This document shows positions 4,475 through 51,083 of a stretch of 64,000 nucleotides of DNA, in pieces. The translations under genes and the position numbers were made by a program. Under the pieces are notes generated by a model. It did not search any database and had not been told where the DNA came from. It saw only the letters and a program-made list of their open reading frames with translations. Every line of letters starts with the position of its first letter. Positions within the stretch are counted from its first letter, which is position 1. The stretch spans positions 2,058 through 66,057 of the forward strand of contig OY969472.1 of NCBI GenBank assembly GCA_963700155.1, read 5' to 3'. This DNA comes from an uncultured bacterium (GTDB lineage Bacteria; Patescibacteriota; Dojkabacteria; J137).

Positions 4475-4477
4475 TTT

Positions 4478-19877: not shown

Positions 19878-20318
19878 TTATCGACTACTTTGTTATATAT
19901 GTGATACTATTTCAGTTATTTTGATCAAACTATATTAACATTTTATTTTGACATTTTATTAAATTCAACTGAAGTATAGGTCCCATAAATCACTAATAGT
20001 AAAGGAATTACTGAATATCTTTTACAATTCGAAGATAAGATATAAAAGGATTGAACTTTCCAGTTAAACTTGACTTAATTTCATAATTTTCTAATCGAAT
20101 TATTTATGGATATCCACGATAGATAGAAAAAACTTCATATGAAATTGCATTATTTTAAAAAATAATGCGTTACGGTATTGATACAATCTCTATTTATAAT
20201 TCAAAAATGTATACTAAAACTAAATTTTCTTATAGAAAACAGTTTTATACTTATTGTCACCAAAAATAAATATCAAATATAATTGAAGAAGAAAACTTTA
20301 GAATGTTTTTTGTATGTT

Positions 20319-20347
20319 ATTTATCTGTTAAAATCATACAGATAAAT
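20319..20347. promoter_or_regulatory. perfect 10-bp inverted repeat with a 9-nt spacer (ATTTATCTGT-N9-ACAGATAAAT), candidate operator
   Basis: It lies 16-44 nt upstream of the radA start codon. The core CTGT-N9-ACAG resembles a LexA-type SOS box, which is CTGT-N8-ACAG in E. coli. Confidence 0.4.
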
Positions 20348-20362
20348 TAATAAAATTTCAAT

Positions 20363-21667: not shown

Positions 21668-21669
21668 AT

Positions 21670-24024: not shown

Positions 24025-24099
24025 ACAATATTAACTGAATATTATTTCACTTATAGTCTACAATATCTAGTGGATTTAGAGAAGAATTTAAAGCATTTC

Positions 24100-24999
24100 T
24101 TATGTTAAATCACTCAAGTTTTTATTAACATTATCAAATTGACTTTTATTTATTATTAAAACTGCTCCATCTTTTTTTCTTGCAGCATAATAGTTGCCAT
24201 CACTTAAACTATAAATATCAAATCCATAAGAATTCCCATTTTTAAAATTAATTGTAAATGTTAAGTCAGGTTTCTTCCCTGTTAACTTTTTTGAATCATC
24301 ATTCGAAGCAAAACTTACACCACTAAAGTTTATTAAATTATTTAGGAAAGTATTAGTACTATCTTGATTAAGGGTTTTTGAGTTATCAGATAAAACAAAA
24401 GTACCGTTACTAGAATCAATTTCAAATCCTTTTGCAATAACTTTATCAAGATTATTTATATCCCCTGCAGATAAAGTCTTATCACGATAATCATTCAATG
24501 TTAAAGTAATACTATCAGTTAAATTTTTATCAACTAAATAAACATTTGCATCTCCTTCAGTTCTTAAATAATTTCCTGTTGAGGTTGCCTTTCCTAAAAT
24601 TATTGTAGTAATTTTATTTGTTCCATTAAATAAACCAACAGTTACACCATTAGCATCATCAATATTAAAAATTGAGTAATTTTCAGGATTTGAAGAAGAT
24701 ATATTTGTTACCTGTGCTGAAGATAAGCTATTCAATATTCCTTCAATTTTATTATTATCTGCATCATAACTATTCTTAAAGTTATCATCAGAAGCTTTCC
24801 ATTGATTATCAACTTTAGTAAGATCAATTGTATTTCCCTTATTAATTGAAATTTTATCAACCGAAGATTGTTGATCACTGCTTAAAAAAACCTTTGTAGA
24901 ACTATTAGATTGAAAATAATTTAATGCAGTAAGACCTGCAGCAATAAAAAATATAATTCCAAATACTATTAAAAGTCTTTTTAATTGATTATTATCCAT
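24100..24999 (-). CDS. DUF4340-like membrane-anchored accessory protein of the ABC/GldG-type system
   Basis: N-terminal TM helix and an Asn/Ser-rich beta-rich body. It lies immediately downstream of the GldG-like fusion gene on the same strand. Confidence 0.4.
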   Translation of the reverse strand: MDNNQLKRLLIVFGIIFFIAAGLTALNYFQSNSSTKVFLSSDQQSSVDKISINKGNTIDLTKVDNQWKASDDNFKNSYDADNNKIEGILNSLSSAQVTNISSSNPENYSIFNIDDANGVTVGLFNGTNKITTIILGKATSTGNYLRTEGDANVYLVDKNLTDSITLTLNDYRDKTLSAGDINNLDKVIAKGFEIDSSNGTFVLSDNSKTLNQDSTNTFLNNLINFSGVSFASNDDSKKLTGKKPDLTFTINFKNGNSYGFDIYSLSDGNYYAARKKDGAVLIINKSQFDNVNKNLSDLT

Positions 25000-25004
25000 A
25001 AATT

Positions 25005-27263: not shown

Positions 27264-27278
27264 AATATTAATAAATAT

Positions 27279-28217
27279 TTAATTATTTTTAATTTGAGTA
27301 AGTTCTCTAAATAAATCTTCAAGATTTTGTTGTCTTACTGATAGTTCATAAATCATCCAATCATTCTTTTTTGAAATATCATTTATATCTTTTATTAATT
27401 TATCTAAGTTCTCTGAGGTAATTCTAAATTTTGCAGTTTTTCTGTCATCGTTAATTTCTGCAATACTATTAAATTTAAGTGATTTAAGATCGTTTTGTTT
27501 TACTTTTTTCCCAGAACTTTTCAAAGCTAAATAAACTTCATTAGTATTAAATCTCTTTTTTGTTATTGCATCTTTTGTATCGTCAAGAACTATTTTTCCT
27601 TTATTTATTATAATAATTCTGTTACACATTGCTTCAACTTCCTGCATAACATGAGTGCTGATTACAACTGTTCTATCTTTACCTAATTCTTTTATCAGGT
27701 TTCGAATTTCATTTCGCTGATTTGGATCAAGTCCTTCAGTTGGTTCATCTAAAATCATAATTTCAGGATCATGTACAAGAACTTGTGCAATCCCAACTCT
27801 TTGTTTATAACCTTTTGAAAGCTCAGAAATTGGTCTGTAAAAAACATCTTGAATTCCAGTTGCCTTAACTACATAATCTATTTTCTTCTTGTGTTCTGAC
27901 TTTGGAATTGAGTGAAGATCAAGTGCAAGCTTTATAGCTTCTTCTACAATCATTTCTTTATATAATGGATTATTTTCTGGCATATAACCGATTAGTTTTT
28001 TTGCAAACACCATATTATCTTTTACTTCCTTCTTCTCAATTGATATTTTCCCCGAATCCGGTATAAGAAACCCTGATATTACTTTCATTGTTGTTGATTT
28101 TCCTGCTCCATTTGGACCAAGTAATCCTACAACCTCTCCTTTATCAATCTCAAAAGATACTCCGTCCAGTGCTGTTAAATCACCATATTTCTTGGTAATA
28201 TTTTCAAGTTTAATCAT
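27279..28217 (-). CDS. ABC transporter ATP-binding protein (GldA-like)
   Basis: Walker A motif GPNGAGKSTT, signature LSKGYKQRVGIAQ, and Walker B motif ILDEPT. Confidence 0.85.
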   Translation of the reverse strand: MIKLENITKKYGDLTALDGVSFEIDKGEVVGLLGPNGAGKSTTMKVISGFLIPDSGKISIEKKEVKDNMVFAKKLIGYMPENNPLYKEMIVEEAIKLALDLHSIPKSEHKKKIDYVVKATGIQDVFYRPISELSKGYKQRVGIAQVLVHDPEIMILDEPTEGLDPNQRNEIRNLIKELGKDRTVVISTHVMQEVEAMCNRIIIINKGKIVLDDTKDAITKKRFNTNEVYLALKSSGKKVKQNDLKSLKFNSIAEINDDRKTAKFRITSENLDKLIKDINDISKKNDWMIYELSVRQQNLEDLFRELTQIKNN

Positions 28218-28291
28218 AAATATTATTTAATAGTTATTAACATCAATATATCTCTAAATATAACACAAAGTTCTTACAAAACATTTACATC

Positions 28292-28789
28292 TCAAGCTGC
28301 CTTTTTTAGAATACCATTATTCGACAATAGTTCTGTGTTAATTCTTTCACTTGGCACGACTACATTTTGATTACCCTCGGGGCTTGTATAATAGGTTACA
28401 AATTCATTTGCTTTTAAGAAATCCAGTGCTTTAGTTAAATCTTCAATACTGAAACCTGGTTTATATTTATCAAATATTTCTAACATTTTTGAATGTTCAA
28501 CCTCATGTAAGTTTTCTCCTATACCTTGTTTAAATAGCAAAATCAGCCACAATAATGCCTGATCATTAATTCCTTCAGCATCAATAATTTCTTTCTGGTC
28601 TTGTTTAAGTTTAATATTCTCTTCAATTACTCTTCTATCAACCCCAAATGGATTATGTTCTGGAACTCTATAGCCTTCTTTTGCATAATCTCCTTTCATA
28701 AAAGGGATTTCACTATCAGTCATTCCTGGAATATTCGGATTACCCTTAACTGAACTTGGTCTTATTCTTCCTGTGTTTTGTGTATTCAT
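28292..28789 (-). CDS. hypothetical protein
   Basis: 165-aa ORF with no recognisable motif. It ends with a TGA stop. Confidence 0.4.
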   Translation of the reverse strand: MNTQNTGRIRPSSVKGNPNIPGMTDSEIPFMKGDYAKEGYRVPEHNPFGVDRRVIEENIKLKQDQKEIIDAEGINDQALLWLILLFKQGIGENLHEVEHSKMLEIFDKYKPGFSIEDLTKALDFLKANEFVTYYTSPEGNQNVVVPSERINTELLSNNGILKKAA

Positions 28790-28816
28790 ATTTTTTTATA
28801 AATAATTAAAATATTA

Positions 28817-30625
28817 CTATTTTAATTTACCTAATTTTTTAGCTAATGTCTCTGTCTGAGTAAGTAATTCATCAATTTCGTTCAATCCTTGATACCAGAA
28901 GTTCTTTTTTGTAATATCTACTCCAAGTTTTTTAAATATATTTTTTGGAGATTCTGAACTTCCAGATTCGAAAAATTTAATAACTTTCTTAATAAATTGA
29001 GGATTTTCTTTTACAAAATGTTGTAATGATTTAGATATTAATAATCCGCTTGAATAAGAATATACATAGAAGAAACTTCGGATATGACTAATATAAAGCC
29101 ACCAATTTTCTGAACCAGGAGATTGAATAACAGAATCTCCCATATACTCTTCCATCTTTGTTTTAAAAATCAAGCCGATTTCCTTTTTAGATAAATATCC
29201 TTTCTCTCTAAATTGTTCATTAATCTCTTTCTCAAAATTATATATTCCAATTTGTCTGTGAATTGTTGAAACTTCCTCATTTAATTTCATCATATAAAGG
29301 GTGAGTCTTAGTTCATCATCAGCATCTTTTAATAATTCCTGCAGAACAAAATCTTCCATAAAAGTGCTTGATACTTCTGCAGTTGAAACTGGTGCGAATG
29401 CATATAAAGTATTCTGTTTTTTCATTAAAGTATGATGTACACCATGTCCCATTTCATGAGCAAAAGTTAATACATCATTAAGTTTATTTGTATGATTAAG
29501 CATAACAAAGACTGGAAGTTCTTTTCCTCCTTCAGTACAAAAGGCACCACTTGCTTTTCCTTTTTTTGGGAAAACATCTACTCTCCCCTCATCTAGAAAA
29601 CTTTGGAATATATCGAACAGCAATGGATCTAGTTTTCTAAAGACATTACCTACTAGATTAACAGTTTCATCAAAATTATATTTTTTACTGATTTCTCCAT
29701 AATGGACGTTTCTTTCATGATATTCAAGTTTATCCTTTCCCAAAAGTCTGGCTTTAAGTTTATAATATTTTCTTGAAGTCTCAAATTTCTTTACTACTGA
29801 TTCTCTAAGTGATTCTACAACTTCAATATCCATATCATCATCAAGAAGTCTTGCTTGTTCGGGAGTTTTATAATTTCTTAAAGTATCATTAATTTTTTTA
29901 TTTTCAAGAACTGAATTAAGTTCATGCTCTCCAACATCAATCCATTTTTCAAAAATTTCATTTAATGCTAAAGCTGCAGAATCTCTTACCTTTTGTTTCT
30001 TATTATCTATTAATGAAATTATTTCACTAAAACTTTTCTTTTCTTTTTTACCCTCTTCTGTAAAAACAACTTTTTCTTCTTTTGATAAGAACTCTTCGGT
30101 CATTTGAACCCAATTATAATAAGATACTTTCGACTTTAGATTCATGATTTTCTCTTGGTCTTCTGTTAGAAGATGGTTAGCCTCTAAAAAAAGCCTTTTA
30201 AGAAAATGTTTATATTTTTTTAGCTCTGAGGAATTTAAAAATTTAGATTGTTGCTTTTTGTCTATTGTCGCAATTCGATGTGCAAAAAATTGAATATCAT
30301 TTTCAATTTTTTGCCCCATTTCTATTACTTTATTTAATTTTGCTTTTATTTCTGTATTCTCTTGATCTAAAACTGAACTCAACCATAAGTAATAACCTTC
30401 ATTACCATCACTTCCAAATTTAGCTAGCCATTTCTCATATTCTTCTAATGCTTTAGCAAGCACTTTAGGATTCTTTAAGTAATCATCTCTATCTTTCCAT
30501 TTATTGATAAATTCATAACTTTTTTTCTTTACAATTTTTCTATCTTTTTCAATTTTAGGGTCGTCTATATTTTTGTAGAAGATTTCTAAATTCCAAGAAG
30601 TACTCAATTTCTTTTCTTTTTTCAT
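28817..30625 (-). CDS. pepF: oligoendopeptidase F (M3 family)
   Basis: 602 aa with the HEMGHGVH zinc-binding HExxH motif and typical M3B length. Confidence 0.85.
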   Translation of the reverse strand: MKKEKKLSTSWNLEIFYKNIDDPKIEKDRKIVKKKSYEFINKWKDRDDYLKNPKVLAKALEEYEKWLAKFGSDGNEGYYLWLSSVLDQENTEIKAKLNKVIEMGQKIENDIQFFAHRIATIDKKQQSKFLNSSELKKYKHFLKRLFLEANHLLTEDQEKIMNLKSKVSYYNWVQMTEEFLSKEEKVVFTEEGKKEKKSFSEIISLIDNKKQKVRDSAALALNEIFEKWIDVGEHELNSVLENKKINDTLRNYKTPEQARLLDDDMDIEVVESLRESVVKKFETSRKYYKLKARLLGKDKLEYHERNVHYGEISKKYNFDETVNLVGNVFRKLDPLLFDIFQSFLDEGRVDVFPKKGKASGAFCTEGGKELPVFVMLNHTNKLNDVLTFAHEMGHGVHHTLMKKQNTLYAFAPVSTAEVSSTFMEDFVLQELLKDADDELRLTLYMMKLNEEVSTIHRQIGIYNFEKEINEQFREKGYLSKKEIGLIFKTKMEEYMGDSVIQSPGSENWWLYISHIRSFFYVYSYSSGLLISKSLQHFVKENPQFIKKVIKFFESGSSESPKNIFKKLGVDITKKNFWYQGLNEIDELLTQTETLAKKLGKLK

Positions 30626-30741
30626 AAATCATATTTTATAAACAATTTTTTGATTATATAACGAGAAATATGAAATTGGTATGAAAAACTATCTCTTTAT
30701 TGAAAATATAAGTACTATAAATTATAATAATCATGCTCTAA

Positions 30742-30979
30742 GCCGAATATAGTAAAATGGTCATTTAAAGTGATGCTTTTGAAAAAAGCATTTAAGAACA
30801 TGTTTATTCTTAACTTACAATGACCGATCTTAGTAGTTTTACAATTAACGCGGGTATAGTATATCGGTCATTTAAAGTTATGCTTTTGAAGAAAGCATTT
30901 AAGAAAAAGTTTGTTCTTTACTTGCAATGACCGATCTTAGTAGCTTTACAATTAATGCGGGTATAGTATATCGGTCATT
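30742..30979 (+). repeat. tandem direct repeat of about 107 bp (two full units plus one degenerate unit). Each unit ends with a copy of the first 23 nt of tRNA-Gly.
   Basis: The units begin at about 30759 and 30867. The third unit, from 30973, runs into the genuine tRNA. Each unit contains the palindrome ATGCTTTTGAA(A/G)AAAGCAT and the inverted copy CAATGACCGATC of the tRNA D-region TATATCGGTCATT. The two full units are more than 90% identical. Confidence 0.75.
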
Positions 30980-31028
30980 ATATTGGTTTTCCAAACCAAG
31001 GAGGCGGGTTCGATTCCCGCTACCCGCT
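30957..31028 (+). tRNA. tRNA-Gly (anticodon TCC)
   Basis: Manual fold: acceptor stem GCGGGTA/TACCCGC, D-loop containing GG, anticodon stem TTGGT/ACCAA with loop TTTCCAA (U33 and anticodon TCC), 4-nt variable loop, T-arm GCGGG-TTCGATT-CCCGC, and discriminator T followed by TTTTT. Confidence 0.8.
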
Positions 31029-31090
31029 TTTTTCATAAAACTCTTTCCTGGTAAGCAATGTAATTTCTACTAGTAATGGGCTGATCGAAC
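31015..31090 (+). repeat. att-like direct repeat R0: the tRNA-Gly 3' end plus about 60 nt of downstream flank
   Basis: ACCCGCTTTTTTCATAAAACTCTTTCC...ACTAGTAATGGGCTGATCGAAC is repeated with about 75% identity at 33487-33579. Confidence 0.6.
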
Positions 31091-32397
31091 TAATTAGGAA
31101 AAATCTCAGTTGAACCTTCAATAATTTTCACTGTAGAATTATTTTCAAATATAAATTTAAGTTCCTCTCCAGCCCAACTATAATCCTCTTCTTTTCCTAT
31201 CAAAAATGTTTGATCAGTTTTATGTTTATAATAACTGAAACCATTCATTGGAGTTTCACTGTTTAAATAGATGCAAATTAAACCATTATTAAACTGAGTT
31301 ACATACTCATCGGTTCTCTTATTTGAATATTTTCCTTTTAATTTACTGAGCTCATCATTATTTTCATCATCCTTAAAATTATTTTTAACATATAGCCATA
31401 TTGCATGGATTGAATTAGCTATTGTATTTGTCCAGCTATCCATGGAGTTTGTCAGTACTACTATCCCAATATCATTCTCGTTATCAATAAGTATTTGTGA
31501 AGAATAACCATTGAAAGAACCTCCATGACCATTTACTAAAATATTCGAGTTATGCCAAGTTTCATATCCGTAACCATATTGTAAATCACTATCTCTTGAC
31601 GTTCTTACTTTTCTCATTTCTTCTAAACTATTTTTACTCAATTTAACTGGATTTAAATTTTCTCTCACAAATTTAGATAAATCCTCCACACTAGATATAA
31701 AACCAGTGGAGGCTGAAAATGCTTTAGTCTGTACATTATTTAATGGTTCATCTGAGTGCAAACTTTTTCTTTTATAAGGAGTACAAATTCCAGTTATACT
31801 TGAATCTTCCAAGTCAGAATAAGTATTTTTCATTTCAAGAACAGATAGAAAATCTTTTGAAAATTCTACAAAGGATTTTATAGTAATTTTTTCGATTATC
31901 AAGCCTAAGATTGCATATCCTAAATTTGAGTATTTAAATTGCTCCATTGGTGCATATATCTTAATATCCTTTTTTAATTCTTCAAGTACAAATTCTTTAT
32001 CAGGAAAATTATCATCTTCCCAACATAAAGTATTACCATCTGATTTAATACCTGATTGATGACTCAGTAATTGCCTAATAGTAATATTTGAAATATTTGA
32101 ATTTATTTCTTCAAAATATTTATTTAACTTATCCTCTAAAGACAACTTATCTTCTTCTAAAAGTTTAAAAATCATATTTGCTGTAAACATCTTTGAAACA
32201 GAGGCTACCCTATACATACTTTTAGTATTCGATTCAGTTTTATTCATTAAATTGCTATATCCGTAGCTATTAGAATAAATATTGTTTCCCCCATTAACAA
32301 GTGAGATTGTAATACTGGGAATATTTTCAGTTTTCCTAAAGTGATCCAACCAAACATTTATAAGCTCTATTGCTTTTTCTTGAGATTTACTACCCAT
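31090..32397 (-). CDS. beta-lactamase-fold serine hydrolase (class C beta-lactamase / EstB / D-aminopeptidase family)
   Basis: The motifs SVSK (S-x-x-K), YSN and HGG occur at appropriate spacing in a 435-aa protein. Confidence 0.75.
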   Translation of the reverse strand: MGSKSQEKAIELINVWLDHFRKTENIPSITISLVNGGNNIYSNSYGYSNLMNKTESNTKSMYRVASVSKMFTANMIFKLLEEDKLSLEDKLNKYFEEINSNISNITIRQLLSHQSGIKSDGNTLCWEDDNFPDKEFVLEELKKDIKIYAPMEQFKYSNLGYAILGLIIEKITIKSFVEFSKDFLSVLEMKNTYSDLEDSSITGICTPYKRKSLHSDEPLNNVQTKAFSASTGFISSVEDLSKFVRENLNPVKLSKNSLEEMRKVRTSRDSDLQYGYGYETWHNSNILVNGHGGSFNGYSSQILIDNENDIGIVVLTNSMDSWTNTIANSIHAIWLYVKNNFKDDENNDELSKLKGKYSNKRTDEYVTQFNNGLICIYLNSETPMNGFSYYKHKTDQTFLIGKEEDYSWAGEELKFIFENNSTVKIIEGSTEIFPN

Positions 32398-32476
32398 TTT
32401 TTTAATTTAATATCTATCAAAGAATTTTATCATTAAATCATTGTAAAGCTCTAGAATATAATTTTAGTTAATTTAA

Positions 32477-32488
32477 CCATAACCCGCT
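32477..32488 (+). repeat. att-like remnant R1 (CCATAACCCGCT)
   Basis: Short degenerate copy of the tRNA-Gly 3' end (TACCCGCT), sharing the core found in R2-R4. Confidence 0.4.
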
Positions 32489-32567
32489 TTCTGTGATTGT
32501 TGTCCGATATTCTTCTCAATTTGCCATTCTATATCTAAACTTACTATTGTTACTAATGAAGAAGATA

Positions 32568-32596
32568 TTGACTTTCTTATATAACCAAGATATAAT
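32568..32596 (+). promoter_or_regulatory. near-consensus sigma70-type promoter (TTGACT-17-TATAAT)
   Basis: The -35 box is at 32568-32573 and the -10 box at 32591-32596. About 40 nt downstream is a GGAGGG ribosome-binding site placed 6 nt before ATG 32646. Confidence 0.6.
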
Positions 32597-32645
32597 GTAT
32601 ATACGGTATGAAGCATTAAGCTTCTAACTATATGGAGGGTACAAA

Positions 32646-32729
32646 ATGCCTGACACAACCAAAAGTGGTGGAAACAGTCCCAAGGGCGGTGGTCCTAAAT
32701 CGCCGGGTCCAGGCCCGAAGCAAGGGTAA
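32646..32729 (+). CDS. micro-ORF encoding a 27-aa Gly/Pro/Lys-rich peptide (MPDTTKSGGNSPKGGGPKSPGPGPKQG). It could alternatively be a GC-rich small RNA.
   Basis: Strong RBS GGAGGG, an ATG start, a TAA stop, and local GC far above the genome background. It is followed 13 nt later by a perfect GC-rich hairpin. Confidence 0.4.
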   Translation: MPDTTKSGGNSPKGGGPKSPGPGPKQG

Positions 32730-32742
32730 CTAACTCCATCAC

Positions 32743-32765
32743 GGGGCGACACAATGTGTCGCCCC
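32743..32765 (+). terminator. perfect GC-rich hairpin (GGGGCGACAC-aat-GTGTCGCCCC) with no U-tract
   Basis: 10-bp perfect stem with a 3-nt loop, in a genome that otherwise lacks GC-rich stretches. Confidence 0.45.
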
Positions 32766-32892
32766 AAACAACCCCAACAAAAACATTTTGAAAGATATTT
32801 GAAATTCATAACTCCTAATATCAATAAAATACCAAAATCGGATTATCCAGAGACATTAAATATTTGGATATTGTCAGAAAACCGAGTTGTTA

Positions 32893-32918
32893 GTTCGAAC
32901 TTCGGTCCATAACCCGCT
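32893..32918 (+). repeat. att-like remnant R2 (GTTCGAACTTCGGTCCATAACCCGCT)
   Basis: Degenerate copy of the tRNA T-loop and 3' end. It is nearly identical to the start of R3. Confidence 0.5.
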
Positions 32919-33018
32919 TTTGCTTCTAGAATCATTTCCCAATGAGCATTTTGATAACTATTCTAGCCAAAAAATAAATGATATAATAAAAATCATATAA
33001 ATTATTAGTTTATAACAT

Positions 33019-33357
33019 ATGAATAGAGATGAAACTCCTACAGTCGCTGATGCCGTAGATGCTACGCGAGAGAGATATAATAAGGAACGTTCTACAAGTT
33101 ATAAGGTAGGGCAAACTTTAACAATACCTGAAGGCACAAGAATTATAGTGGAAGGAAAGGGGATGATATTGCCAGTTGAGGTAGAGGCGGTCGTAAAACA
33201 TATAGAATATGATGATTATTCATTGGAAATGGCGGAGTCACAATTAGTACCCGACGATAACAATAACTTAGATTTCCCTAAAATTACTTTTAAACTTAAA
33301 GGTTATGAACGTGGTGAAACAGTGAAATTATTTCAGTTTCGTTTACCTCGAGGATAG
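33019..33357 (+). CDS. hypothetical protein, higher-GC islet gene
   Basis: 112-aa ORF with GC clearly above the genomic background. It is flanked by att-like remnants R2 and R3. Confidence 0.4.
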   Translation: MNRDETPTVADAVDATRERYNKERSTSYKVGQTLTIPEGTRIIVEGKGMILPVEVEAVVKHIEYDDYSLEMAESQLVPDDNNNLDFPKITFKLKGYERGETVKLFQFRLPRG

Positions 33358-33486
33358 CCTCTCAAAAAAGACAGTTTAGGTTCTAAATAGAGTAGCCAAT
33401 TCTTAAGGCAAATATGGTTTTGAATGAGTTAAGTACGCATTTGAAGATTAGATCCACATGTATTATCTAATGTACTTGTACGAGCA

Positions 33487-33579
33487 GTTCGGTTCGAACT
33501 TCGGTCCATAACCCGCTTGTGTCATAAAATTCTTTCCCATTAACCATTATATTTTCAACTAGTAACGGTCTGATCGAAC
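33487..33579 (+). repeat. att-like direct repeat R3 (a copy of the tRNA 3' end and downstream flank, cognate to R0)
   Basis: GTTCGGTTCGAACTTCGGTCCATAACCCGCTTGTGTCATAAAATTCTTTCC...ACTAGTAACGGTCTGATCGAAC aligns with 31015-31090. Confidence 0.6.
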
Positions 33580-33622
33580 CAAATTTGATATAATCCAAAT
33601 AAATAAATTTACATATATTTAT

Positions 33623-34423
33623 ATGGAGAAAGAATGCATACCTGAAGGATTAAGCGAGGGTGAATATTTTAAAAGAATTATAGACATTTTTAGCAGTCAA
33701 GAAATAGTTAGAGAACATGTAATTAAAAATCACGATGATAACCTTTGGTGGCCTCAAAAAGTTAAGGATCCAAGAAAGAGATTACTATTTGCAGGATTAT
33801 CAACTAGGGTTTCATATAACATGATTGACCATTATCGCTCAGTTATAGATGAACTCGATGCTTACTCCTACGAAGATATAGTAAATTTACCTGTTGAAGA
33901 TTTAATAAAAATTGTAGGGAGATTAGGACTAGGTAATACTAGGACTAAATATATTCACTCAATGATTAAATTCATTCAACTTCATGATACGGAATTATCC
34001 TCTTATTCAAATTCAGATTTAATTAAATTGATTTCTGAAGAAGTTGATGGAGCATCGTATAAGGTTGCACAGTGCTGCGTGTTATATTCGCGAGGTTACC
34101 ATTGCGGAGTTATGCCTGTTGATAGTGGAATGAAAGATATGCTGCTCCCATGTATCGGATTCAATCTCAGTAATGGTGCAATTGGCCATGAAGAAGCTCG
34201 ATTGGAGCTTGAGAGATTAGTTTCAGAAGTAGATTTAAGACCAATATTAGAGAAAAATAATTATTTGGATTATATAAATATACCTGAAGGTGCAGATTTA
34301 ACTTGGTGGACACACTTAGTACTTATTTACTACAAGAGATTCTTTTGTAATAAACATAATCCATCAATCTGCCCTTTAGCAAATACTTTTAAATTAAGAG
34401 AATCATGTAAAGAGGAACTATGA
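33623..34423 (+). CDS. Ogg-like HhH-GPD DNA glycosylase/lyase (8-oxoguanine glycosylase family)
   Basis: LGLGNTRTKY matches OGG1 LGLGYRARY. VDGASYKVAQCCVLYS matches PGVGTKVADCICLMA, with the catalytic Lys conserved. PVDSGM matches PVDVHM, with the catalytic Asp conserved. It ends with TGA in an ATGA overlap with the next gene. Confidence 0.65.
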   Translation: MEKECIPEGLSEGEYFKRIIDIFSSQEIVREHVIKNHDDNLWWPQKVKDPRKRLLFAGLSTRVSYNMIDHYRSVIDELDAYSYEDIVNLPVEDLIKIVGRLGLGNTRTKYIHSMIKFIQLHDTELSSYSNSDLIKLISEEVDGASYKVAQCCVLYSRGYHCGVMPVDSGMKDMLLPCIGFNLSNGAIGHEEARLELERLVSEVDLRPILEKNNYLDYINIPEGADLTWWTHLVLIYYKRFFCNKHNPSICPLANTFKLRESCKEEL

Positions 34424-34900
34424 TAATACTAGAAGGTTTGGATGGGACAGGTAAAAGTACCCTTTCAGAAAAATTAAAACAATTTGGATATTCAAATTTA
34501 TATTTTGCACATGACCCAGAAAATAAAGATATCTATGGGAAATATTTAAATATATTAAAAGGTGGAAACTTACAAAAATTAATTTTAGACCGTTCATTCA
34601 TAAGTGAATTTGTTTATGGGAACGTACTTAGAGGTGGAAGTAGACTGAGTGAATCTCAAATACAAACTCTTGCAAAAAATTATGCTCAGAAAAGTGGAAG
34701 GATAATTTATTTGGTTGCACCTTATAACACCCTAGTCAAAAGAAGAAAATAAAGATTTGCTAATTCTCCAAAAGAATTATAAGGAACTAAATGATTCGTA
34801 TGAATACATAATGAAATCATTAAAAAATTTTATAAGGATATATAAATTTGATACTAAACTAAAGAGCACAGAACAAATTGTAAAAGACTTAGACTTTTTA
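34420..34900 (+). pseudogene. Tmk-like P-loop kinase interrupted by a -1 frameshift in an A-rich run
   Basis: The Tmk P-loop ILEGLDGTGKST is present. Frame 1 stops at 34750-34752 after 110 aa. The reading frame continues in the -1 frame (EENKDLLILQKNYKELNDSYEYIMKSLKNF...) to a TAG at about 34900. The shift maps to AAAAGAAGAAAATAAAG. Confidence 0.5.
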
Positions 34901-34910
34901 TAGAAATCAT

Positions 34911-35711
34911 ATGACTACTGATATTGTTTTCGCAGGTAACATCTCAAGGGATAAGATTTCTTGTATGGATAGTATTTACAGAGAGGTTTGGGGTGGGAGT
35001 TCACTTAATTCTTCATTAGTATGTAGGGTGGTGAGTAATAAAGGTATCGGATTGATTACAGCATTTGGTAATGACTTTGATAGAAATTTACTTTCAAAAA
35101 ATAGAATACAGATTGAGAATTCATTTGTTAGTAGAAAGAGTAATGCTTTTTTGATAAATGAAAGAAAAGATACATTTACTCTGGAAGAACCTCCTTATCT
35201 AAATTACAATAATATACCCAATATTAACACCAATATATTACACGTTTCCTTTAGGAGAGGTGTCCCTATTGAAAGAATCTTAGACTCAAAAGGAGTTAAC
35301 TTTAAATCTTTATCAATTGATGTGATGATTCATAGTATTAAAGATTATCTTCCATTGTTCCAAAAATATAAAGATGCTATAAATTTTGCTTTTTGTAACT
35401 CCTCTGAGTATAGAATTATTAAAGACTATCTTGAACCATCTGCAAATATTCTAGTGACAGATAGTGGTAAGGATGTAACCTATTTCAATGGCGAAACTAA
35501 GAAAGTATTTAGAGTTATTAATGTAGATAGTAGCAAGGTAGTATCAACTACTGGTGCTGGTGATTGCTTTATTGGTGGCTTTTGGGGTTCTTTTCTTACT
35601 AATGATTCATTTGATAATTCTATAAATTTAGGAATAAAATTAGCATCAGATTCTGTAAAATATTGTGGAGTCGAAGATTTTATAAATAATAGTAATTTAC
35701 TAAAACATTAA
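34911..35711 (+). CDS. PfkB/ribokinase-family carbohydrate or nucleoside kinase
   Basis: C-terminal TTGAGDCFIGGF (the GAGD ATP-binding motif) and a ribokinase-fold N-terminus. Confidence 0.75.
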   Translation: MTTDIVFAGNISRDKISCMDSIYREVWGGSSLNSSLVCRVVSNKGIGLITAFGNDFDRNLLSKNRIQIENSFVSRKSNAFLINERKDTFTLEEPPYLNYNNIPNINTNILHVSFRRGVPIERILDSKGVNFKSLSIDVMIHSIKDYLPLFQKYKDAINFAFCNSSEYRIIKDYLEPSANILVTDSGKDVTYFNGETKKVFRVINVDSSKVVSTTGAGDCFIGGFWGSFLTNDSFDNSINLGIKLASDSVKYCGVEDFINNSNLLKH

Positions 35712-35728
35712 TTTTTAAGACTAAAATA

Positions 35729-36028
35729 ATGAGTAAAAAACAGAACTCGGTTCAAAAACAAATCTGGCAAAATAAATTAGACAAAGGATTTAATACAGAA
35801 AATGTTGATAAAGAATTCTGCTTTGCTTATGGAGAACTTGGTGAAGCATATAATGCCTACAGAAAAGGTTTAGAAGATTTAGGTGATGAATTAGCTGATG
35901 TGGCTATTTACCTTTATGCATTATCAGAAATGCTAGGTTTTGATTTAGACAATGAAGTTACAAAGAAATTGGCAAAAAACAAAGCTCGTAAATATGAAAA
36001 AAAGAACGGAGTTTTACTAAAAATTTAA
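35729..36028 (+). CDS. MazG-like nucleoside triphosphate pyrophosphohydrolase (small all-alpha NTP-PPase)
   Basis: EFCFAYGELGEAYNAY...ELADVAIYLYALSEMLGFDL matches the MazG-domain EExxE/D metal-binding pattern. Confidence 0.75.
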   Translation: MSKKQNSVQKQIWQNKLDKGFNTENVDKEFCFAYGELGEAYNAYRKGLEDLGDELADVAIYLYALSEMLGFDLDNEVTKKLAKNKARKYEKKNGVLLKI

Positions 36029-36034
36029 ATTACT

Positions 36035-36061
36035 GGTTTGAACTTCGCTCCATAACCCGCT
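36035..36061 (+). repeat. att-like remnant R4 (GGTTTGAACTTCGCTCCATAACCCGCT)
   Basis: Degenerate copy of the tRNA 3' end. The flank that follows (TTTTTCAAAACC...) resembles the flank after the genuine tRNA. Confidence 0.5.
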
Positions 36062-36305
36062 TTTTCAAAACCTTCAATTCATTTTACAAACAAAAGAACC
36101 GCTCAGGTTAGATTTTTACAAAAAGCGGACAATTATATTATAAACGTCACAATAATAAACCAAGAACCTTCGTAGACTATTCATCTTTGATATATATATT
36201 TATTAAACACTTACTATCATTACAGATACATTCAATTATATATAATTTTTGCATATTTTTATTCTCAAATGTATAATAAATAAAATATCTATTAAAATAC
36301 TAATT

Positions 36306-37991
36306 ATGGGAAAGAAGATCATATTTAATGTATTAATAATATTCTTAATGTTTTCGCCTGCTTCAGGCATGGTTTTTGCTCAAAATATAAATTTAATAAA
36401 TAACCCTTCAGTTGAAACATCACAAAATTCACTTCCTCAAGATTGGTCAAAAGAAAGCTGGGGGAAAAACACTGTATCTTACCAATATCTATCAACAGGT
36501 CATACTGGCTCAAAAAGTCTTTATCTAAAAGTTAGCGATTACCAAAGTGGAGACGCAAAATGGGTATTCAATCCTGTAAATGTTTCAGCAAGCACTAACT
36601 ATCTTTTTACAGACTACTATAAATCCACGGCTGTAAGTGATGTTGTAGTTAGATTAATTGATTCTTCGAATAAACAGACATATATAGACTTGGGAGAAAC
36701 CCAGCCTTCAGCAAATTGGACACAATTTTCAGCAACTTTTAAAACTAAACCAACAACTGTAAAAGTTACTGTTTTACATTTACTCTATAACGACGGAGAA
36801 TTAACTACAGACGACTATAGTTTATATCTAAATCCAGGAGCTGTAATAACTTACAATGTTCCAAACAACTCTGTAGAAACAGTTTCAACTATAAATCCTA
36901 ATCTCCCGGACAGCTGGACAAGCGATGCTTGGGGAACAAATAATGCACAATTCGATTATTTAAATACTGGTTATGATAGTAATCGAAGTGTCAAAGTAAC
37001 AATATCTTCTTACACTAACGGCGATGCTAAATGGATGTATAATCCACAACCTTTGACAAAAGGACAATATTATGAGTTTCAAGATTATTATCAGTCTGAT
37101 GTTTCTACTGAAGTCGCAGTTATGTATACTAAAAGAAATGGTTCACAAGCATTTCTTGAACTCAAAAATGCTCCTGTAAGTACAGGATGGAATCATTATA
37201 CTGCTTACTTCACAGTACCAAATAATGCTGTTAATGTCAGTGTTATTCACTTTCTATCAATGGCGGGGTATCTTGTTACTGATGATTATAGCGTCACTCC
37301 TGCAGTATATAAACCATTGACTCGTGCTTTGCTAACCCTGACTTTTGACAATGGCTATGAAGATAATTCAACTACTGCTGTCCCCACTATGGACGCTTTA
37401 GGTATTAAAAGCACACAATGTTTCTCAACTGAATATTTAGAAGCTGAAAATCACACTTGGGATTATATTGTAAAACAATTTTATGACGATGGTCATGAAA
37501 TTTGTTCCCACTCAGCACATCACGAAGATATTACAAATTTAACTGCTTCCCAACTTGATTATGAGTACAGTTATTCACAAAATTATTTAGACGATTTGAT
37601 TGGTGTACCTGATGCAGTTCAAAATTATATTTCGCCATTCGGAAGTTATTCTGATACAGCTTTTACTGAAGCACAAAAGTACTATACTTCTTTCCGAAGT
37701 ACAGATGACGGATATAATACCAGAGACAATATGAATTTTTATAATTTGCATGTTCAAAATATTCTGAAGACTACAACAGCAGCAAAGGTTCAATCTTGGG
37801 TGAACAATGCGATCGCAAATAAATCTTGGCTTGTTATTGTATATCATAGAGTTGCCACAAAAAAGATTGGCAAATATGACACAACGCCTACATTATTTGA
37901 TGCACAGATGCAAGCAATCGTAAATTCCAAAATTACAGTATTAACTACAGCTCAGGCGATACAGGAAATTACTCCTCAGCTAGATAAATAG
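36306..37991 (+). CDS. secreted polysaccharide deacetylase (NodB homology domain) with two N-terminal CBM-like beta-sandwich repeats
   Basis: Signal peptide MGKKIIFNVLIIFLMFSPASGMVFAQ. Two paralogous domains of about 150 aa, each ending in a TTDDYS/VTDDYS-type segment. C-terminal NodB motifs TFDNGYEDN and HSAHHEDIT. The track start at 36249 is a TTG, and ATG 36306 is preferred. Confidence 0.7.
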   Translation: MGKKIIFNVLIIFLMFSPASGMVFAQNINLINNPSVETSQNSLPQDWSKESWGKNTVSYQYLSTGHTGSKSLYLKVSDYQSGDAKWVFNPVNVSASTNYLFTDYYKSTAVSDVVVRLIDSSNKQTYIDLGETQPSANWTQFSATFKTKPTTVKVTVLHLLYNDGELTTDDYSLYLNPGAVITYNVPNNSVETVSTINPNLPDSWTSDAWGTNNAQFDYLNTGYDSNRSVKVTISSYTNGDAKWMYNPQPLTKGQYYEFQDYYQSDVSTEVAVMYTKRNGSQAFLELKNAPVSTGWNHYTAYFTVPNNAVNVSVIHFLSMAGYLVTDDYSVTPAVYKPLTRALLTLTFDNGYEDNSTTAVPTMDALGIKSTQCFSTEYLEAENHTWDYIVKQFYDDGHEICSHSAHHEDITNLTASQLDYEYSYSQNYLDDLIGVPDAVQNYISPFGSYSDTAFTEAQKYYTSFRSTDDGYNTRDNMNFYNLHVQNILKTTTAAKVQSWVNNAIANKSWLVIVYHRVATKKIGKYDTTPTLFDAQMQAIVNSKITVLTTAQAIQEITPQLDK

Positions 37992-38014
37992 CAAATCTAA
38001 TTAAAAACTATTCT

Positions 38015-38042
38015 AAAACCATTGGTAAGTGCCAATGGTTTT
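38015..38042. terminator. bidirectional hairpin terminator between convergent genes
   Basis: AAAACCATTGG-taagtg-CCAATGGTTTT forms a perfect 11-bp stem. It is flanked by A-runs on the left and T-runs on the right. Confidence 0.6.
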
Positions 38043-38188
38043 ATTATTATGAAAGATAGTAGACTTAACATTCTTTCATTATTTTAATTTAGACGAATAA
38101 TTTATATAGAATTATATTCGTTTATATTAAAAATTTTTAAATATAACATTGAGCTGTATCATTTTGTTCAGAAAGTTTTCCAGTTTAA

Positions 38189-38998
38189 TTACAATTTTGC
38201 AATATTAACAGTTTTCATTTTAAAATACTGAGTTCCTGCGGCGCCTCCTTGTGCAGTTAATTCACCAGAAAGTGCAACTTCATCATCAGCTTTTAGATTT
38301 GCTACGAAAGGTATTCCACTAATAAATGACTCAGGAACTAAATAGTTAACACAAGGAGGCGCCGGATTTGCACATGAATTAAATACATAATTAGATTTAG
38401 TTGAAACATCTGGATCAACTTCTTTATCTACATATTTAGCTATAACATTAATTAAAATATCCCCATTTAAAACAAAATATTCATTTCCTGCTGCATTACC
38501 TGCAGGTGAAGGTACAATCTGCCCAGAAATAAGAACTGGCATTGTGTCTTGAAGTGAGCTCAAAATAGGATAGTCAGATTTTGTTGATGCATCAAGTAAA
38601 TAATGGTAACAAACTGATAAATTATTATCGCAATAATCGAAAGAATAATAATCAGTACCAGCAATTTGCACAGTTGTTGAACTATAAGTTGTTCTTTTGT
38701 CTGTTATTGTATCAGCATTAGTATATGAAACAGGCGTACTCACTGGATTTTGGTTTGAACTATTGTTTGATGATGAATTATTATTTTGGTTTGTAGGTGC
38801 ATTATTATTATTTTGTAAAAGTAAAAATAAGACTATGACTACTATCACAACTATTATTAATACAAACCCTCCTACAATTATTATCATTTTGTTTCTTGGC
38901 GAATTATTATTTACACTATTTGCAACAGTTAAATTTGGTTGAGTCATTTCTTTATTTTCGACTCCAGATATATTATTTTGGTTTGTTTGTGTGTCCAT
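38189..38998 (-). CDS. secreted or membrane-anchored hypothetical protein with an Asn/Ser-rich low-complexity linker
   Basis: N-terminal TM helix (IIIVGGFVLIIVVIVVIVLFLLL), an NQNNNSSSNNSSNQN tract, and two related C-terminal subdomains. Confidence 0.45.
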   Translation of the reverse strand: MDTQTNQNNISGVENKEMTQPNLTVANSVNNNSPRNKMIIIVGGFVLIIVVIVVIVLFLLLQNNNNAPTNQNNNSSSNNSSNQNPVSTPVSYTNADTITDKRTTYSSTTVQIAGTDYYSFDYCDNNLSVCYHYLLDASTKSDYPILSSLQDTMPVLISGQIVPSPAGNAAGNEYFVLNGDILINVIAKYVDKEVDPDVSTKSNYVFNSCANPAPPCVNYLVPESFISGIPFVANLKADDEVALSGELTAQGGAAGTQYFKMKTVNIAKL

Positions 38999-39077
38999 AT
39001 TTTTTATAAAAAAAAGTATTACTTTATATAATACAACTAATTAAAAATCATCTCTATAAGTAGTGATATAATTCATC

Positions 39078-39593
39078 ATGGATTGGCAATTGACTGGGAA
39101 TATCGAAAAATCAGAGATCATTAACTTTGAAGAATCTTTAGAGCAATTAGAAGAACTTTTCAACTATCTTTTAAATTTAATTAATCTTTATCCTGAAAAT
39201 CTTAAAACAGCTATTATTTTCGATCAATGGAGTTTGAAAGATATTCTTGCTCATTTTATAGGATGGAATAAACTTACAACCGATGATATAAAAAGAACAT
39301 TAAAAGGAAAAACAAAAGATAATATATGGATAGATGATGCTGAGATAGACCTTTTTAATAAGACTGAAGTGAATAAAAGAAGTACATTAAATTGGGATGA
39401 AGTTCTAAATGAATTTATTATATCTTTCGAAGAACTTTTTAATACATATAAATCCATTCCTCCTGAATTTAGAAAAGCTAATTTGAATCCAAATGAAGAA
39501 GGCTTTCCAATAAGTTTGAGCTTAATGGTTGATGTAAAACATTTCATTTATCACATCTTTGAAATTGAGACAAAAATTAGTGAAATTATTTAG
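39078..39593 (+). CDS. DinB_2 / ClbS (DUF1706)-like four-helix-bundle protein (tentative)
   Basis: 171 aa. ILAHFIGWNKLTTDDIKRTL resembles the ClbS/DfsB IGW motif region. Size fits. Confidence 0.4.
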   Translation: MDWQLTGNIEKSEIINFEESLEQLEELFNYLLNLINLYPENLKTAIIFDQWSLKDILAHFIGWNKLTTDDIKRTLKGKTKDNIWIDDAEIDLFNKTEVNKRSTLNWDEVLNEFIISFEELFNTYKSIPPEFRKANLNPNEEGFPISLSLMVDVKHFIYHIFEIETKISEII

Positions 39594-39688: not shown

Positions 39689-42600
39689 ATGGAAGAAAAT
39701 ACTGAGAATAAAAATATTATTCTTCTTAACGACGATCTTACTATACGTATTGTTCTTAAGAACTTACTACATCAATATTTTGATAAAAATGTAAAAATAT
39801 ATTCATCTGCCGAAGCATTACAAGGTCTTGGTTTAATTTTCATCTTAAAGTCGGATATAGTTATTGTAGATAAGTCACTTCCTAAGCATAATGGCTTAAA
39901 TATTGTCGACTATATAAAATCCAATGAAAAATTAAAAAAAGTAAAGACAAAAGTTATTGTTCTTGGTGAGGGGAAAGAAGATTCCTCAATACCAAATGAA
40001 TATAAATATATTGATACAACAGATGAGAATTTCCCTGGAACATTAGTAAATTATGTAAAAACAGTTATTCCAGAGTATGTTTCTAAAATTAATAAAGTAA
40101 ATTCTTTAATTTCTAAGTTAGGTAAAAATGTTGTTAAATTCTCTAATAAATCAGATAAAATAATAGCCAATGATAAGGGAAGATTTTTCCCAATGACTCC
40201 TTGGTTAAAATGGGTGTATTATCAATTTTTATCTAGTGTTAATCTTACCTTGTTTTCTTTTCTAGTAGGAAAATTCCCTGATGAGAACAAGGAACAACAG
40301 AAATTTGATATCGAATCCAACTTCAGGAAAAATCTTCCTGGAATAGCGATTGGACTTACAATGTTGTTTTTAACAAGTATAACTGCCTTTGCAATTGGAG
40401 GTACAGTGATAACATCATCATTAGTTTTAACTCAAAATGTACAATCAGCTACAGCAAGAACCTGGGATGGAGGCGGTTCGCAGGACTCATGTGGAGGTAA
40501 TCTAGGAGATGAGAATAAATGGAGCTGTGCTGAAAACTGGAATCCCGATGGAGTTCCTGGGAGTAGCGATACAATTACTTTCAACGGGACTAGTACAAAG
40601 AATTCTGTTATTGATGCAAGTTTTGCAGGAACAGTAAATAATATTACGATAGCGTCTGGCTATACTGGAACAATTACTCAAGCTCGTTCATTAACCGCAA
40701 GTGGTACTTATTCTCAGGCTGCTGGAACATTTAATAGCGAAAACCAGTCTTTAACCGTTGGCTTTTTTACTCTATCTGGTGGAAGTTTTACTGCTCCATC
40801 AACAAACATGACTATATACAGTATGATGACGGTAACTGGTTCACCAAGTTTTAATGCAAATAATGGTACTGTTAATTTCACCTTAGGATATTTAACTATA
40901 TCTTGCGGGAATATTACATTTAATAAGGTAACGATTACTAATGCTGGTTATGTCGTTGTTGAAAGTGATTGTAATCTACCTCTTGGAAATAATCCTACTT
41001 TGTCTTGGGATTATCGTCAAAATTTCTTATTATCAGGTACACTTACTGGCTCTGGAACTCTTACAGCTACTAGCGCAACCACAAGTGGAAAATATTTTTA
41101 CCTTGAGCCTGGTTCAGCATTAGTTGGATTTAGTGGGTTAAATGTCGGGAATTTTTATGTTGCAAATACAGATGCAGATTTTAGTAGTTATACTACTTTC
41201 AGTGTCTCTGGGTATGTAGGACAAAGTTCAGGAACATTTAAAATGCCTACTATTACTGGAACTAATGGTATTCAAGATCTTACACTTTCGGGTGGGACAT
41301 TCAGAGCTCCACCAGGTAATTTAAATATTAATCATGAGATAAACATTAGTGCATCTGCAGCTCCGGGTTTTGATGCAAATGGAGGAACTATAAATTTTAT
41401 AAGTGCATCCAGTAGATATTTAACCTGCAACAATGCTGTGTTTAATAAAGTAACTATTAATACAAATCAATTTGTGGTTGTTTATGCTGGATGTAATTTT
41501 CCATTAGGAAATAATCCGACAATAACATGGTCAGGTAGTCAAAACTTTATTTTAGATGGCACTTTGTCTGGAACAGGTACATTGACAACAGTCGGAGGAA
41601 CAACTAGTGGAAAACAATTTTTTTTAGATCCGGGCTCTTCAGTTACTGGATTCACTAATTATAGTATTGGAGGATATTTCACAATCAGTAGTGGAGTTAC
41701 ATTTGATTCTACTGCTCTTGGTGGAACTTTAAGTGTTGCAAGTGGATATACAATCTCTATGGCATCAGGAACAGTTAGTTTGAACGGGACTGCAAATCCG
41801 ACAATAGGCACACTTGGCATTAGTGGGGGCACATTTATTGGACCACCTTCAAATTTAACAATAAATGGGAATCTGAGTATATCAGGAGGAGCTTTTACTG
41901 CTCCAACAGGGAGTATGAATGTTTATGGGAATATTTCAATAAGTGGAAGCTCAACATTTGATGCAAATGGTGGCACAATAACTCTATTAGGAACAAATAC
42001 TCAGACAATGGGGTGCAATAATGTAACATTAAATAAGGTTGTTATAAATAAAGGGAATATTGGTGCTGATAACTCAGTAACCATAGGGAGCGACTGCAGT
42101 CTCCCATTAGGGAACGACCCAACAGTCATAGTAAATTTAAATTCATTTAATTCAAAAAAAGGAGATCTAATATTAAACGGATCTCTGAGTGGTACAGGAA
42201 CTCTTTCAACTGGTAATGGTTCTGGTGGAAATATAACGCTTGGATCAACCGGATCTATCAATGGATTTAGTGGATTTAACTCACCATATATGGGTCTAAT
42301 AGTATCTGGAACCACCCTGGATATGAGTGGATATACAACATTTATGATGGCAGGTAGTAGCCATTTAACTAACTTATCTGTTCAAAGTGGAGGAACTTTA
42401 AAATTACCAACACCAACTGGTTCAGTAACAGTATCTACAATAAGTACAACTGGAGGAAGTACATTTATTGGAGCTGGGGGAAGTATATATGATAACGGTA
42501 GCCTTTCAATAAGTGGGGGAACATTTGTAGCACCATCGGGTACTCTAAGTCTTGTTGGAAATATTTCAATAAGTGGGAATCCAACTTTTGATGCAAATGG

Positions 42601-51056: not shown

Positions 51057-51083
51057 TAATTTATTATTTAATTTATTTTTTCT

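Follow-up and report, generated by a model that had tools for sequence, protein, structure and literature searches.

The 64,000-nucleotide stretch of contig OY969472.1 analysed here (the window) carries a cassette of four genes on the + strand. They encode a glycosylase-like protein with the HhH-GPD fold, a P-loop kinase of the Tmk/dNK type, a PfkB kinase and a MazG-like pyrophosphohydrolase. This cassette is a trimmed copy of a conserved operon of seven to eight nucleotide-processing genes that is common in human-gut bacteria. An earlier note on the same DNA had described four tightly packed or overlapping same-strand genes, and the four open reading frames (ORFs) are present as described (33623-34423, 34420-34752, 34911-35711 and 35729-36028). 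The window was searched with Pfam, NCBIfam, Rfam, ARAGORN, PHROG and PADLOC, and comparison contigs (L001 and L009) were taken from Logan. The genes of the cassette are as follows.

33623-34423, + strand: HhH-GPD-fold glycosylase-like protein, 266 aa
34420-34752, + strand: Tmk/dNK-like P-loop kinase, 5' part, 110 aa (GLDGTGKST and DRS motif)
34742-34903, + strand: the same kinase gene, 3' part in the +1 frame, 53 codons, 74% identical to L009
34911-35711, + strand: PfkB (ribokinase-family) kinase, 266 aa (GG, NxxE and TGAGD motifs)
35729-36028, + strand: MazG-like all-alpha nucleoside triphosphate (NTP) pyrophosphohydrolase (PF12643), 99 aa

The conserved operon

The order HhH, kinase, PfkB, MazG-like recurs in approximately 28 independent loci from two phyla (the window, L009, L034, L010/L011, 21 species-representative genomes and L035-L039). 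The 21 loci come from a pattern scan of species-representative genomes in which gene order was determined by tblastn, and the seven-gene set of the long form listed below is present in this order in all 21 as far as the contigs reach. Rather than lying scattered at core-genome positions in relatives, the genes of the set co-occur and keep their order. Most of the approximately 28 loci have a long form of the operon, composed of the following genes.

Gene 1: NT5C-like HAD nucleotidase
Gene 2: radical SAM enzyme of approximately 500 aa with a CX5CX2C motif
Gene 3: Asp/Glu-racemase-like protein (Pfam Amdase, NCBIfam EutA)
Genes 4 and 5: HhH-GPD-like protein and Tmk/dNK-like kinase
Gene 6: PfkB kinase, in most cases joined to a second P-loop domain or next to one (missing in L031)
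Gene 7: MazG-like protein

The matches of the radical SAM enzyme to MiaB/RimO-like proteins are weak. Hosts of the long operon are metagenome-assembled genomes (MAGs) of gut 'Bacilli', Tenericutes-like bacteria, Erysipelotrichaceae and Mycoplasmatota, together with one MAG labelled Candidatus Dojkabacteria (L032). Two more HhH homologues, sampled at random, likewise lie within a full operon; one of them (P0092) is found in 203 collection blocks, the contigs shown being ENA metagenome scaffolds. A short form without the second P-loop domain occurs in L034 and partly in L033, and the shortest form, which begins at the HhH gene, is that of the window and L009. Some genomes keep just a racemase-like fragment and the HhH gene. 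The genes that flank the operon vary between loci.

The proteins of the operon are also joined physically. The HhH protein and the Tmk/dNK-like kinase form a single polypeptide, with the HhH domain first, in 19 of 37 full-length HhH-family representatives (50%-identity clusters), and P0302 is a fusion of HhH and PfkB in which the PfkB domain scores above the Pfam cut-off. Conserved linkage and fusion support the prediction that the four genes are a functional unit. The window holds a reduced, partly disabled instance of the operon. No description of this gene combination was found in the literature searched, in agreement with the earlier note's statement that it is not a described operon. What appears undescribed is the HhH family, its obligate coupling to kinases and the complete operon; the enzymes belong to known families, and the island is of a known type.

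Two variants of the operon were also seen. The fusion locus L040 encodes a radical SAM enzyme, a racemase-like protein, an HhH::kinase fusion, PfkB and a thymidylate-synthase-fold protein, the last of which takes the place of MazG (4680-5432; the same arrangement is found in L041). In this protein, the catalytic Cys is replaced by Ser and the residue equivalent to Asn177 is an Asp. In L035-L037 (bacterium from metagenome scaffolds), an additional MazG-like copy and a 111-aa gene follow a 281-aa radical SAM gene just 5' of the full operon (2951-5125).

The proteins encoded by the cassette

The HhH-GPD protein scores 21 bits against the conserved domain PF00730, below the gathering cut-off of 26.2, and some of its homologues carry precomputed PF00730 matches. 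Despite this sub-threshold score, structure prediction confirms the HhH-GPD fold. The AlphaFold model (pLDDT 84.7) is all-helical with no beta-strand domain, and its top 50 Foldseek matches in the PDB are all HhH-GPD glycosylases (Ogg1, MagIII, MjOgg, EndoIII, MutY and MIG; TM approximately 0.5). Lys147 (GASYKVAQCC) and Asp167 (MPVDSG), 20 residues apart, are invariant in an alignment of 27 sequences, as are the motifs NHDxNLWWP, AGLSTRxSYNM and MPVDSGMKD and three cysteines near the C-terminus (Cys242, Cys250 and Cys262). The superfamily is characterized by two helical lobes and a helix-hairpin-helix that precedes a Gly/Pro-rich loop and the catalytic Asp; here, the GAS hairpin is followed by MPVD, which contains Asp167. 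Lys147 is aligned by hhalign with Lys120 of EndoIII (Nth). In bifunctional glycosylase/lyases, the HhH-motif Lys lies approximately 18-20 residues before the Asp, and the same arrangement is present here. The KVAQC of this protein presumably resembles the KVADC of Ogg1.

The protein had been taken for an OGG1-like glycosylase with its catalytic Lys and Asp conserved. The fold and both residues hold; the Ogg identity does not, as there is no Ogg or Nth match in NCBIfam, no N-terminal beta-rich domain and no connection of the family to others. An Ogg-HhH model is matched at an E-value of 0.095 only, in one fusion homologue. A HMMER search of 1.84 billion representatives gave just 118 relatives, with no gradation into the Ogg/Nth repair families; a PDB profile search with the family gave nothing significant, and PHROG gave no match. 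The protein is therefore a member of a small, isolated family distinct from Ogg1. It has its fold and HhH motif in common with Ogg1/Ogg2/AGOG and EndoIII, as well as where the catalytic Lys and Asp lie and how far apart they are. It differs from these glycosylases in the isolation of its family, the missing Ogg1 N-terminal domain, a Cys pattern unlike that of the EndoIII cluster loop and the obligate linkage to kinases.

The HhH and kinase genes overlap in an ATGA stop/start at 34420-34423, as reported earlier. The window kinase ORF scores below threshold against Pfam Thymidylate_kin/dNK (24.4 bits, cut-off 27), the ORF being truncated. Its L009 homologue is intact at 166 aa and passes both Pfam cut-offs (Thymidylate_kin 35.9, dNK 30.4); the window ORF ends at a TAA after 110 codons. 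DNA alignment with L009 reveals an 8-nt deletion in the window, within AAAAG[AAGATCAA]AAGAAAAT, which interrupts the kinase exactly where the Arg-rich lid starts. The window copy of this Tmk/dNK-like gene is broken and, because the ORF is cut short at 110 aa, the packing of the cassette is tight at the 34420 overlap and not uniformly so. As the 3' tail of the gene is still conserved relative to L009 (pN, nonsynonymous, 0.14; pS, synonymous, 0.82), the lesion is either recent or an error of assembly. Such an error is possible because L001, the sole second copy, matches the window at 100% identity along 10.7 kb and may go back to the same data. The kinase step is accordingly likely to be disabled in the window by a recent frameshift, if the assembly is correct. 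A programmed frameshift was considered and rejected: the L009 alignment gives an 8-nt deletion between short A/G-rich repeats, and a +1 shift would be needed.

The closest solved relative of the kinase is YorR of phage SPbeta (2axp, E-value: 1e-9), and its best PHROG match is thymidylate kinase (9e-22). SPbeta presumably encodes an NT5C-type nucleotidase, YorS, beside YorR; unlike the cassette, the YorR/YorS unit has no HhH-GPD, PfkB or MazG-like partners. A second Tmk-like P-loop protein (314 aa, LDGLDGSGKGT) is encoded in the window at 9945-10889 (- strand). If this protein is the housekeeping thymidylate kinase, as is possible, the cell could do without the cassette kinase.

The PfkB protein was correctly assigned to the ribokinase family (Pfam 49.6 bits, cut-off 25.8), and its GG, NxxE and TGAGD motifs are invariant in the PfkB alignment. 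In structure it is most like the M. jannaschii nucleoside kinase, with ribokinases and a pseudouridine kinase close behind. Homologues are rare: a word-indexed search found five clusters, including the window's own, and no relatives were found among the 2.9 million viral contigs of IMG/VR. The MazG assignment also holds (PF12643, 35.3 bits, cut-off 27). The metal-binding motif EXXE...EXXD can be read in the translation as GELGE...DELAD, and matches of this protein in the PDB are weak.

Between the window and L009, amino acid identity is 80% for HhH, 70% for the kinase, 66% for PfkB and 82% for the MazG-like protein. Over the cassette genes, pN is 0.11-0.20 and pS is 0.65-0.86. The HhH, PfkB and MazG-like genes are intact, with dN/dS of approximately 0.06-0.10 where dS is unsaturated, and these three genes are under strong purifying selection.

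The tRNA-Gly array and mobility

The earlier note had placed the cassette on a mobile, att-bounded islet. This proposal is supported by a repeat-bounded array at a tRNA-Gly gene in the window and, elsewhere, by long operons located on serine-recombinase islands or beside tRNA genes. The array in the window is organized as follows, with the cassette in segment D, the last of four.

30957-31028, + strand: tRNA-Gly(UCC), anchor of the array (ARAGORN; Rfam 62.7 bits)
31029-32476: segment A, with a beta-lactamase/penicillin-binding protein (PBP)-fold gene (31090-32397, - strand)
32477-32490, + strand: repeat R1, short form (CCATAACCCGCTTT)
32491-32892: segment B, whose sole content, read from the sequence, is a 27-aa ORF (32646-32729) and a hairpin
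32893-32922, + strand: repeat R2 (GTTCGAACTTCGGTCCATAACCCGCTTTTG)
32923-33491: segment C, with a 112-aa ORF (33019-33357) that has no family match
33492-33521, + strand: repeat R3, left boundary of the cassette, 97% identical to R2
36036-36065, + strand: repeat R4, right-hand end of both the cassette and the entire array (90% identity with R2)

The cassette is flanked by direct repeats of the GTTCGAACTTCGGTCCATAACCCGCTT type (33492-33521 and 36036-36065). The part common to the tRNA and the downstream repeats is the tRNA 3' end, ACCCGCT(T): ACCCGCTT of this end is repeated at 32482, 32912, 33511 and 36055 within repeats of 13-30 nt, the last three of which are longer (approximately 30 nt, 90-97% identity). 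The 13-mer CCATAACCCGCTT has four exact copies in the window, and each segment ends in one. With up to two mismatches allowed there are five matches, a number not attained in any of 100 shuffles; the chance expectation is 0.49. The left ends of the segments are also similar. A 72-nt match (81% identity) links 31022-31093, which starts in the tRNA 3' end, with 33511-33582, which starts in R3, so that the first 65 nt of segment A match the start of segment D. At their left ends, the remaining segments and the L009 cassette are built on this framework as well. These repeats and left ends indicate that the region is an array of four short segments (A-D) that follows tRNA-Gly(UCC). As in a tRNA-targeting island, an intact tRNA lies on one side of the array, and the tRNA 3' end recurs as a direct repeat on the other. 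Contig L001, which is identical to the window, begins exactly at R2.

In L009, the same cassette directly abuts an intact tRNA-Gly(UCC), and the position of the cassette relative to the tRNA therefore varies between genomes. Approximately 150 nt 3' of the L009 cassette is a fragment (2757-2780) identical to the middle of the L009 tRNA-Gly (ACTGAAGAGGCGAGTTC), and the core of the right-end repeat is diverged (CCAGATTCAGCTC). Directly 5' of the tRNA-Gly in the window, two tandem 107-nt units (30739-30952) each start with a copy of the tRNA 5' end, which in unit 2 is exact over 23 nt (gcgggtatagtatatcggtcatt). The units contain an inverted repeat that includes this copy, and they may be recombination remnants at the 5' half of the tRNA or a structured leader. 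The ORF of segment B encodes a Gly/Pro/Lys-rich peptide (MPDTTKSGGNSPKGGGPKSPGPGPKQG) preceded by a GGAGGG ribosome-binding site, and the accompanying hairpin (32743-32765) is GC-rich in a locally GC-rich region. This region (32640-32770) was considered as a known RNA and rejected, as it has no Rfam match and consists of the small ORF and the hairpin; the tRNA was the only Rfam match obtained.

No recombinase or integrase was found in the 64-kb window, where Pfam was run on the ORFs of 31090-39593, 19254-30625 and 50658-51419 and the rest was covered by reading translations and a motif screen. An integron cassette array was rejected, as there is no IntI integrase, there are no attC features and the repeat has no extended palindrome beyond GTTCGAAC. 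A search of Joint Genome Institute metagenomes for the att repeat and for relatives of the short-form PfkB found neither. Like tRNA-linked islands, cis-mobilizable elements (CIMEs) and tandem accretion arrays, the window array starts at a tRNA, its direct repeats contain the 3' end of that tRNA, and it consists of several tandem segments whose left ends are similar. Unlike these elements, it has no integrase in the 64 kb, its segments are very small (0.4-2.5 kb) and its repeat matches the present tRNA over 8 nt only. The best explanation is that the cassette is horizontally acquired cargo, the minimal core of an accessory operon, in an integrase-less segment array 3' of tRNA-Gly in a Dojkabacteria-like genome of the candidate phyla radiation (CPR).

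Mobility of the operon is also supported by its setting in other genomes. The long operon adjoins a tRNA-Arg gene in L012 and L031. In L024 (322-16332), L025 and L029, it lies in an insert of approximately 14 kb, which interrupts a PBP gene and has a CcrB/XisF-like large serine recombinase at its end. Sequence clustering shows that 7 of 17 loci have homologues of this recombinase close to the operon. Also encoded on the insert are a GNAT-ASCH protein and a cytidine deaminase with an additional N-terminal domain that looks ASCH-like, an assignment that Pfam did not confirm. A census of 147 flanking ORFs found GNAT, ASCH, cytidine deaminase, HD/HD_3, Y-family polymerase and RNase HII genes and recombinases, serine recombinases accounting for five of the 147. 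Restriction-modification, abortive infection (Abi) and other defence genes are not enriched among these 147 neighbours; one locus adjoins a C5 DNA methylase and a Cas-like gene. A phage origin was considered and rejected: PfkB is absent from IMG/VR, viral models match the HhH model only weakly and the HhH protein is not represented in PHROG.

The surroundings of the array are ordinary chromosome, with a G+C content of approximately 29% for the whole window and genes for an MPG glycosylase, RadA, phosphoketolase, ABC transporters, PepF, a polysaccharide deacetylase and a 3636-aa surface protein. This last protein (39689-50599), located shortly 3' of the islet, is repeat-rich and probably surface-exposed. 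The contig from which the window was taken is 1.14 Mb long, and the best named relatives of the window RarA are from 'Candidatus Dojkabacteria' (70-74% identity).

A model for cassette function

A tentative model, the possibility that we favour with less than even confidence, is that the cassette is a salvage or sanitation funnel for a non-canonical nucleotide, probably a pyrimidine deoxynucleotide. The PfkB and Tmk/dNK-like kinases would convert the nucleoside to its 5'-monophosphate, and the MazG-like enzyme would return the triphosphate to the same monophosphate. The HhH-GPD-fold enzyme would then cleave the N-glycosidic bond of the monophosphate, as Qng1 does, such that the base and sugar phosphate could be salvaged and the analogue kept out of DNA. 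Homology of the cassette proteins does not name a substrate, and both the substrate and the order of the steps are what we infer. The pyrimidine flavour of the model comes from the NT5C-like, Tmk-like and ThyA-fold partners.

The partners of the HhH protein are consistent with a funnel that acts on free nucleotides, as the NT5C-like nucleotidase, MazG-like protein and Tmk-like kinase are all nucleotide-level enzymes and L040 has a ThyA-fold protein in the place of MazG. The organisms that carry these genes, gut Bacilli/Tenericutes-like MAGs and Dojkabacteria, have small genomes. The four-gene form, which is under purifying selection, makes sense alone under this model, and the model would account for the fusions, the self-sufficiency of the four genes, the small-genome hosts and the absence from phages. 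Kinase and glycosidase logic of this type has a parallel in pseudouridine degradation, where the PfkB kinase YeiC makes the monophosphate and the glycosidase YeiN then cleaves pseudouridine-5'-phosphate. A pseudouridine kinase is among the PfkB fold matches; unlike the cassette, YeiC/YeiN has a glycosidase of a different fold and no MazG-like or P-loop kinase partner. The precedent for the proposed HhH role is Qng1 (DUF2419), a protein of HhH fold that keeps the HhH-motif Lys and the Asp and hydrolyses the free nucleotide queuosine-5'-monophosphate (PMC9881137). Conserved Lys and Asp residues do not, therefore, imply a DNA substrate, and salvage by an HhH glycosylase fold fits a step after the kinases. 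Unlike the cassette protein, Qng1 has no operon linkage to kinases or fusion with them.

A number of observations weigh against the funnel. A simple funnel gives no obvious task to the radical SAM enzyme or the racemase-like enzyme of the long operon, and the former has a MiaB/RimO-like layout in which the C-terminus may bind nucleic acids. With an NT5C-like nucleotidase alongside two or three kinases, the operon would contain activities that work partly against one another. The HhH family has no Qng1/DUF2419 match in Pfam or in the PDB profile search, its best fold matches are true DNA glycosylases with Qng1 not among the top ones, and its predicted structure appears to be without the cleft-blocking insertions of Qng1, though no dedicated test for these was made. 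Finally, the frameshifted kinase suggests that the local copy may be decaying.

An alternative, which we consider unlikely, is that the operon modifies or replaces bases at the level of DNA, with the P-loop kinase and then the HhH enzyme acting on a base in polymeric DNA, as do phage 5-HMUDK and aGPT-Pplase. Tailoring of the group so added would fall to the radical SAM and racemase-like enzymes, and the MazG-like, NT5C-like and ThyA-fold proteins would bias the pyrimidine deoxynucleoside triphosphate (dNTP) pool. On this reading, which is similarly improbable in its full form, the operon would be a cellular, island-borne system for hypermodification or exchange of a pyrimidine base, and the window its minimal core. 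Phage thymidine hypermodification uses a P-loop kinase, a glycosylase-like HhH-fold transferase, a radical SAM isomerase, acetyltransferases and a ThyA-like hydroxymethylase, and kinase-transferase fusions occur (PMC8989533). Like such clusters (5-HMUDK with aGPT-Pplase/AADT and radical SAM), the operon pairs, and often fuses, a P-loop kinase with an HhH-fold enzyme, has a radical SAM gene, a ThyA-fold gene in L040 and GNAT and ASCH neighbours, and is carried on mobile islands. The HhH protein has a weak Foldseek match to a phage aGPT-Pplase model as well (E-value: 0.53). However, the Pfam aGPT-Pplase family is unmatched by five family members even at E-values up to 10. Most operons have no source of 5-hydroxymethyluracil, and the L040 ThyA-fold protein, without its catalytic Cys, leaves the operon with no functional hydroxymethylase. 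Unlike the phage clusters, the operon is cellular and island-borne and includes MazG-like and PfkB proteins, the latter with no relatives in the viral contigs. There is no linked nuclease or reader to use a mark, and the four-gene form has no candidate tailoring enzyme and is nevertheless under purifying selection.

Repair and defence are less likely. A GO-system-like repair module, in which the HhH-GPD protein would be a bifunctional DNA glycosylase/lyase for a base with oxidative or other damage and the MazG-like protein would remove the matching damaged dNTP, corresponds to the Ogg/MazG sanitation idea of the earlier note and is doubtful. An HhH-GPD fold whose invariant Lys and Asp correspond to EndoIII K120/D138 and Ogg1 K249/D268, the presumed KVAQC/KVADC resemblance, the MazG-like fold and the Y-family polymerase and RNase HII genes near some operons are what such a module would predict. 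Obligate pairing or fusion with nucleotide and sugar kinases is foreign to known repair glycosylases, however, no Ogg or Nth models are matched, the distribution is accessory, island-borne and patchy rather than core, and the window genome already encodes an MPG glycosylase. Anti-phage defence or counter-defence, a possibility raised in the earlier note, would have the module destroy the modified dNTPs of phages and excise modified bases from phage DNA; it is very unlikely since, mobile-island carriage, the one locus beside a C5 DNA methylase and the listing of MazG and kinase domains among predicted, unvalidated defence domains (PMC13092281) notwithstanding, PADLOC gives no meaningful system match (weak kinase matches only), the neighbours offer no defence-island context and nucleotide-building kinases do not fit a logic of depletion.

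The operon, undescribed in the literature searched, is built around an isolated glycosylase-fold family that is obligately coupled to nucleotide kinases. Kinase fusions make up half of the diversity of this family. Human-gut Bacilli carry the operon in abundance, and the mobile islands that bear it come from two phyla. Few cases show as concretely as this tRNA-Gly array, with its very small segments and no integrase, how cargo enters CPR genomes. If base exchange or modification in DNA were correct, the operon would be the counterpart, in bacteria and the CPR, of thymidine hypermodification in phages and would modify DNA outside phages by new chemistry. If the monophosphate funnel is correct, it would be the second case, after Qng1, of a DNA-glycosylase fold recruited to nucleotide metabolism, and would provide salvage-dependent, small-genome bacteria with a new route to cope with modified nucleosides from their surroundings.

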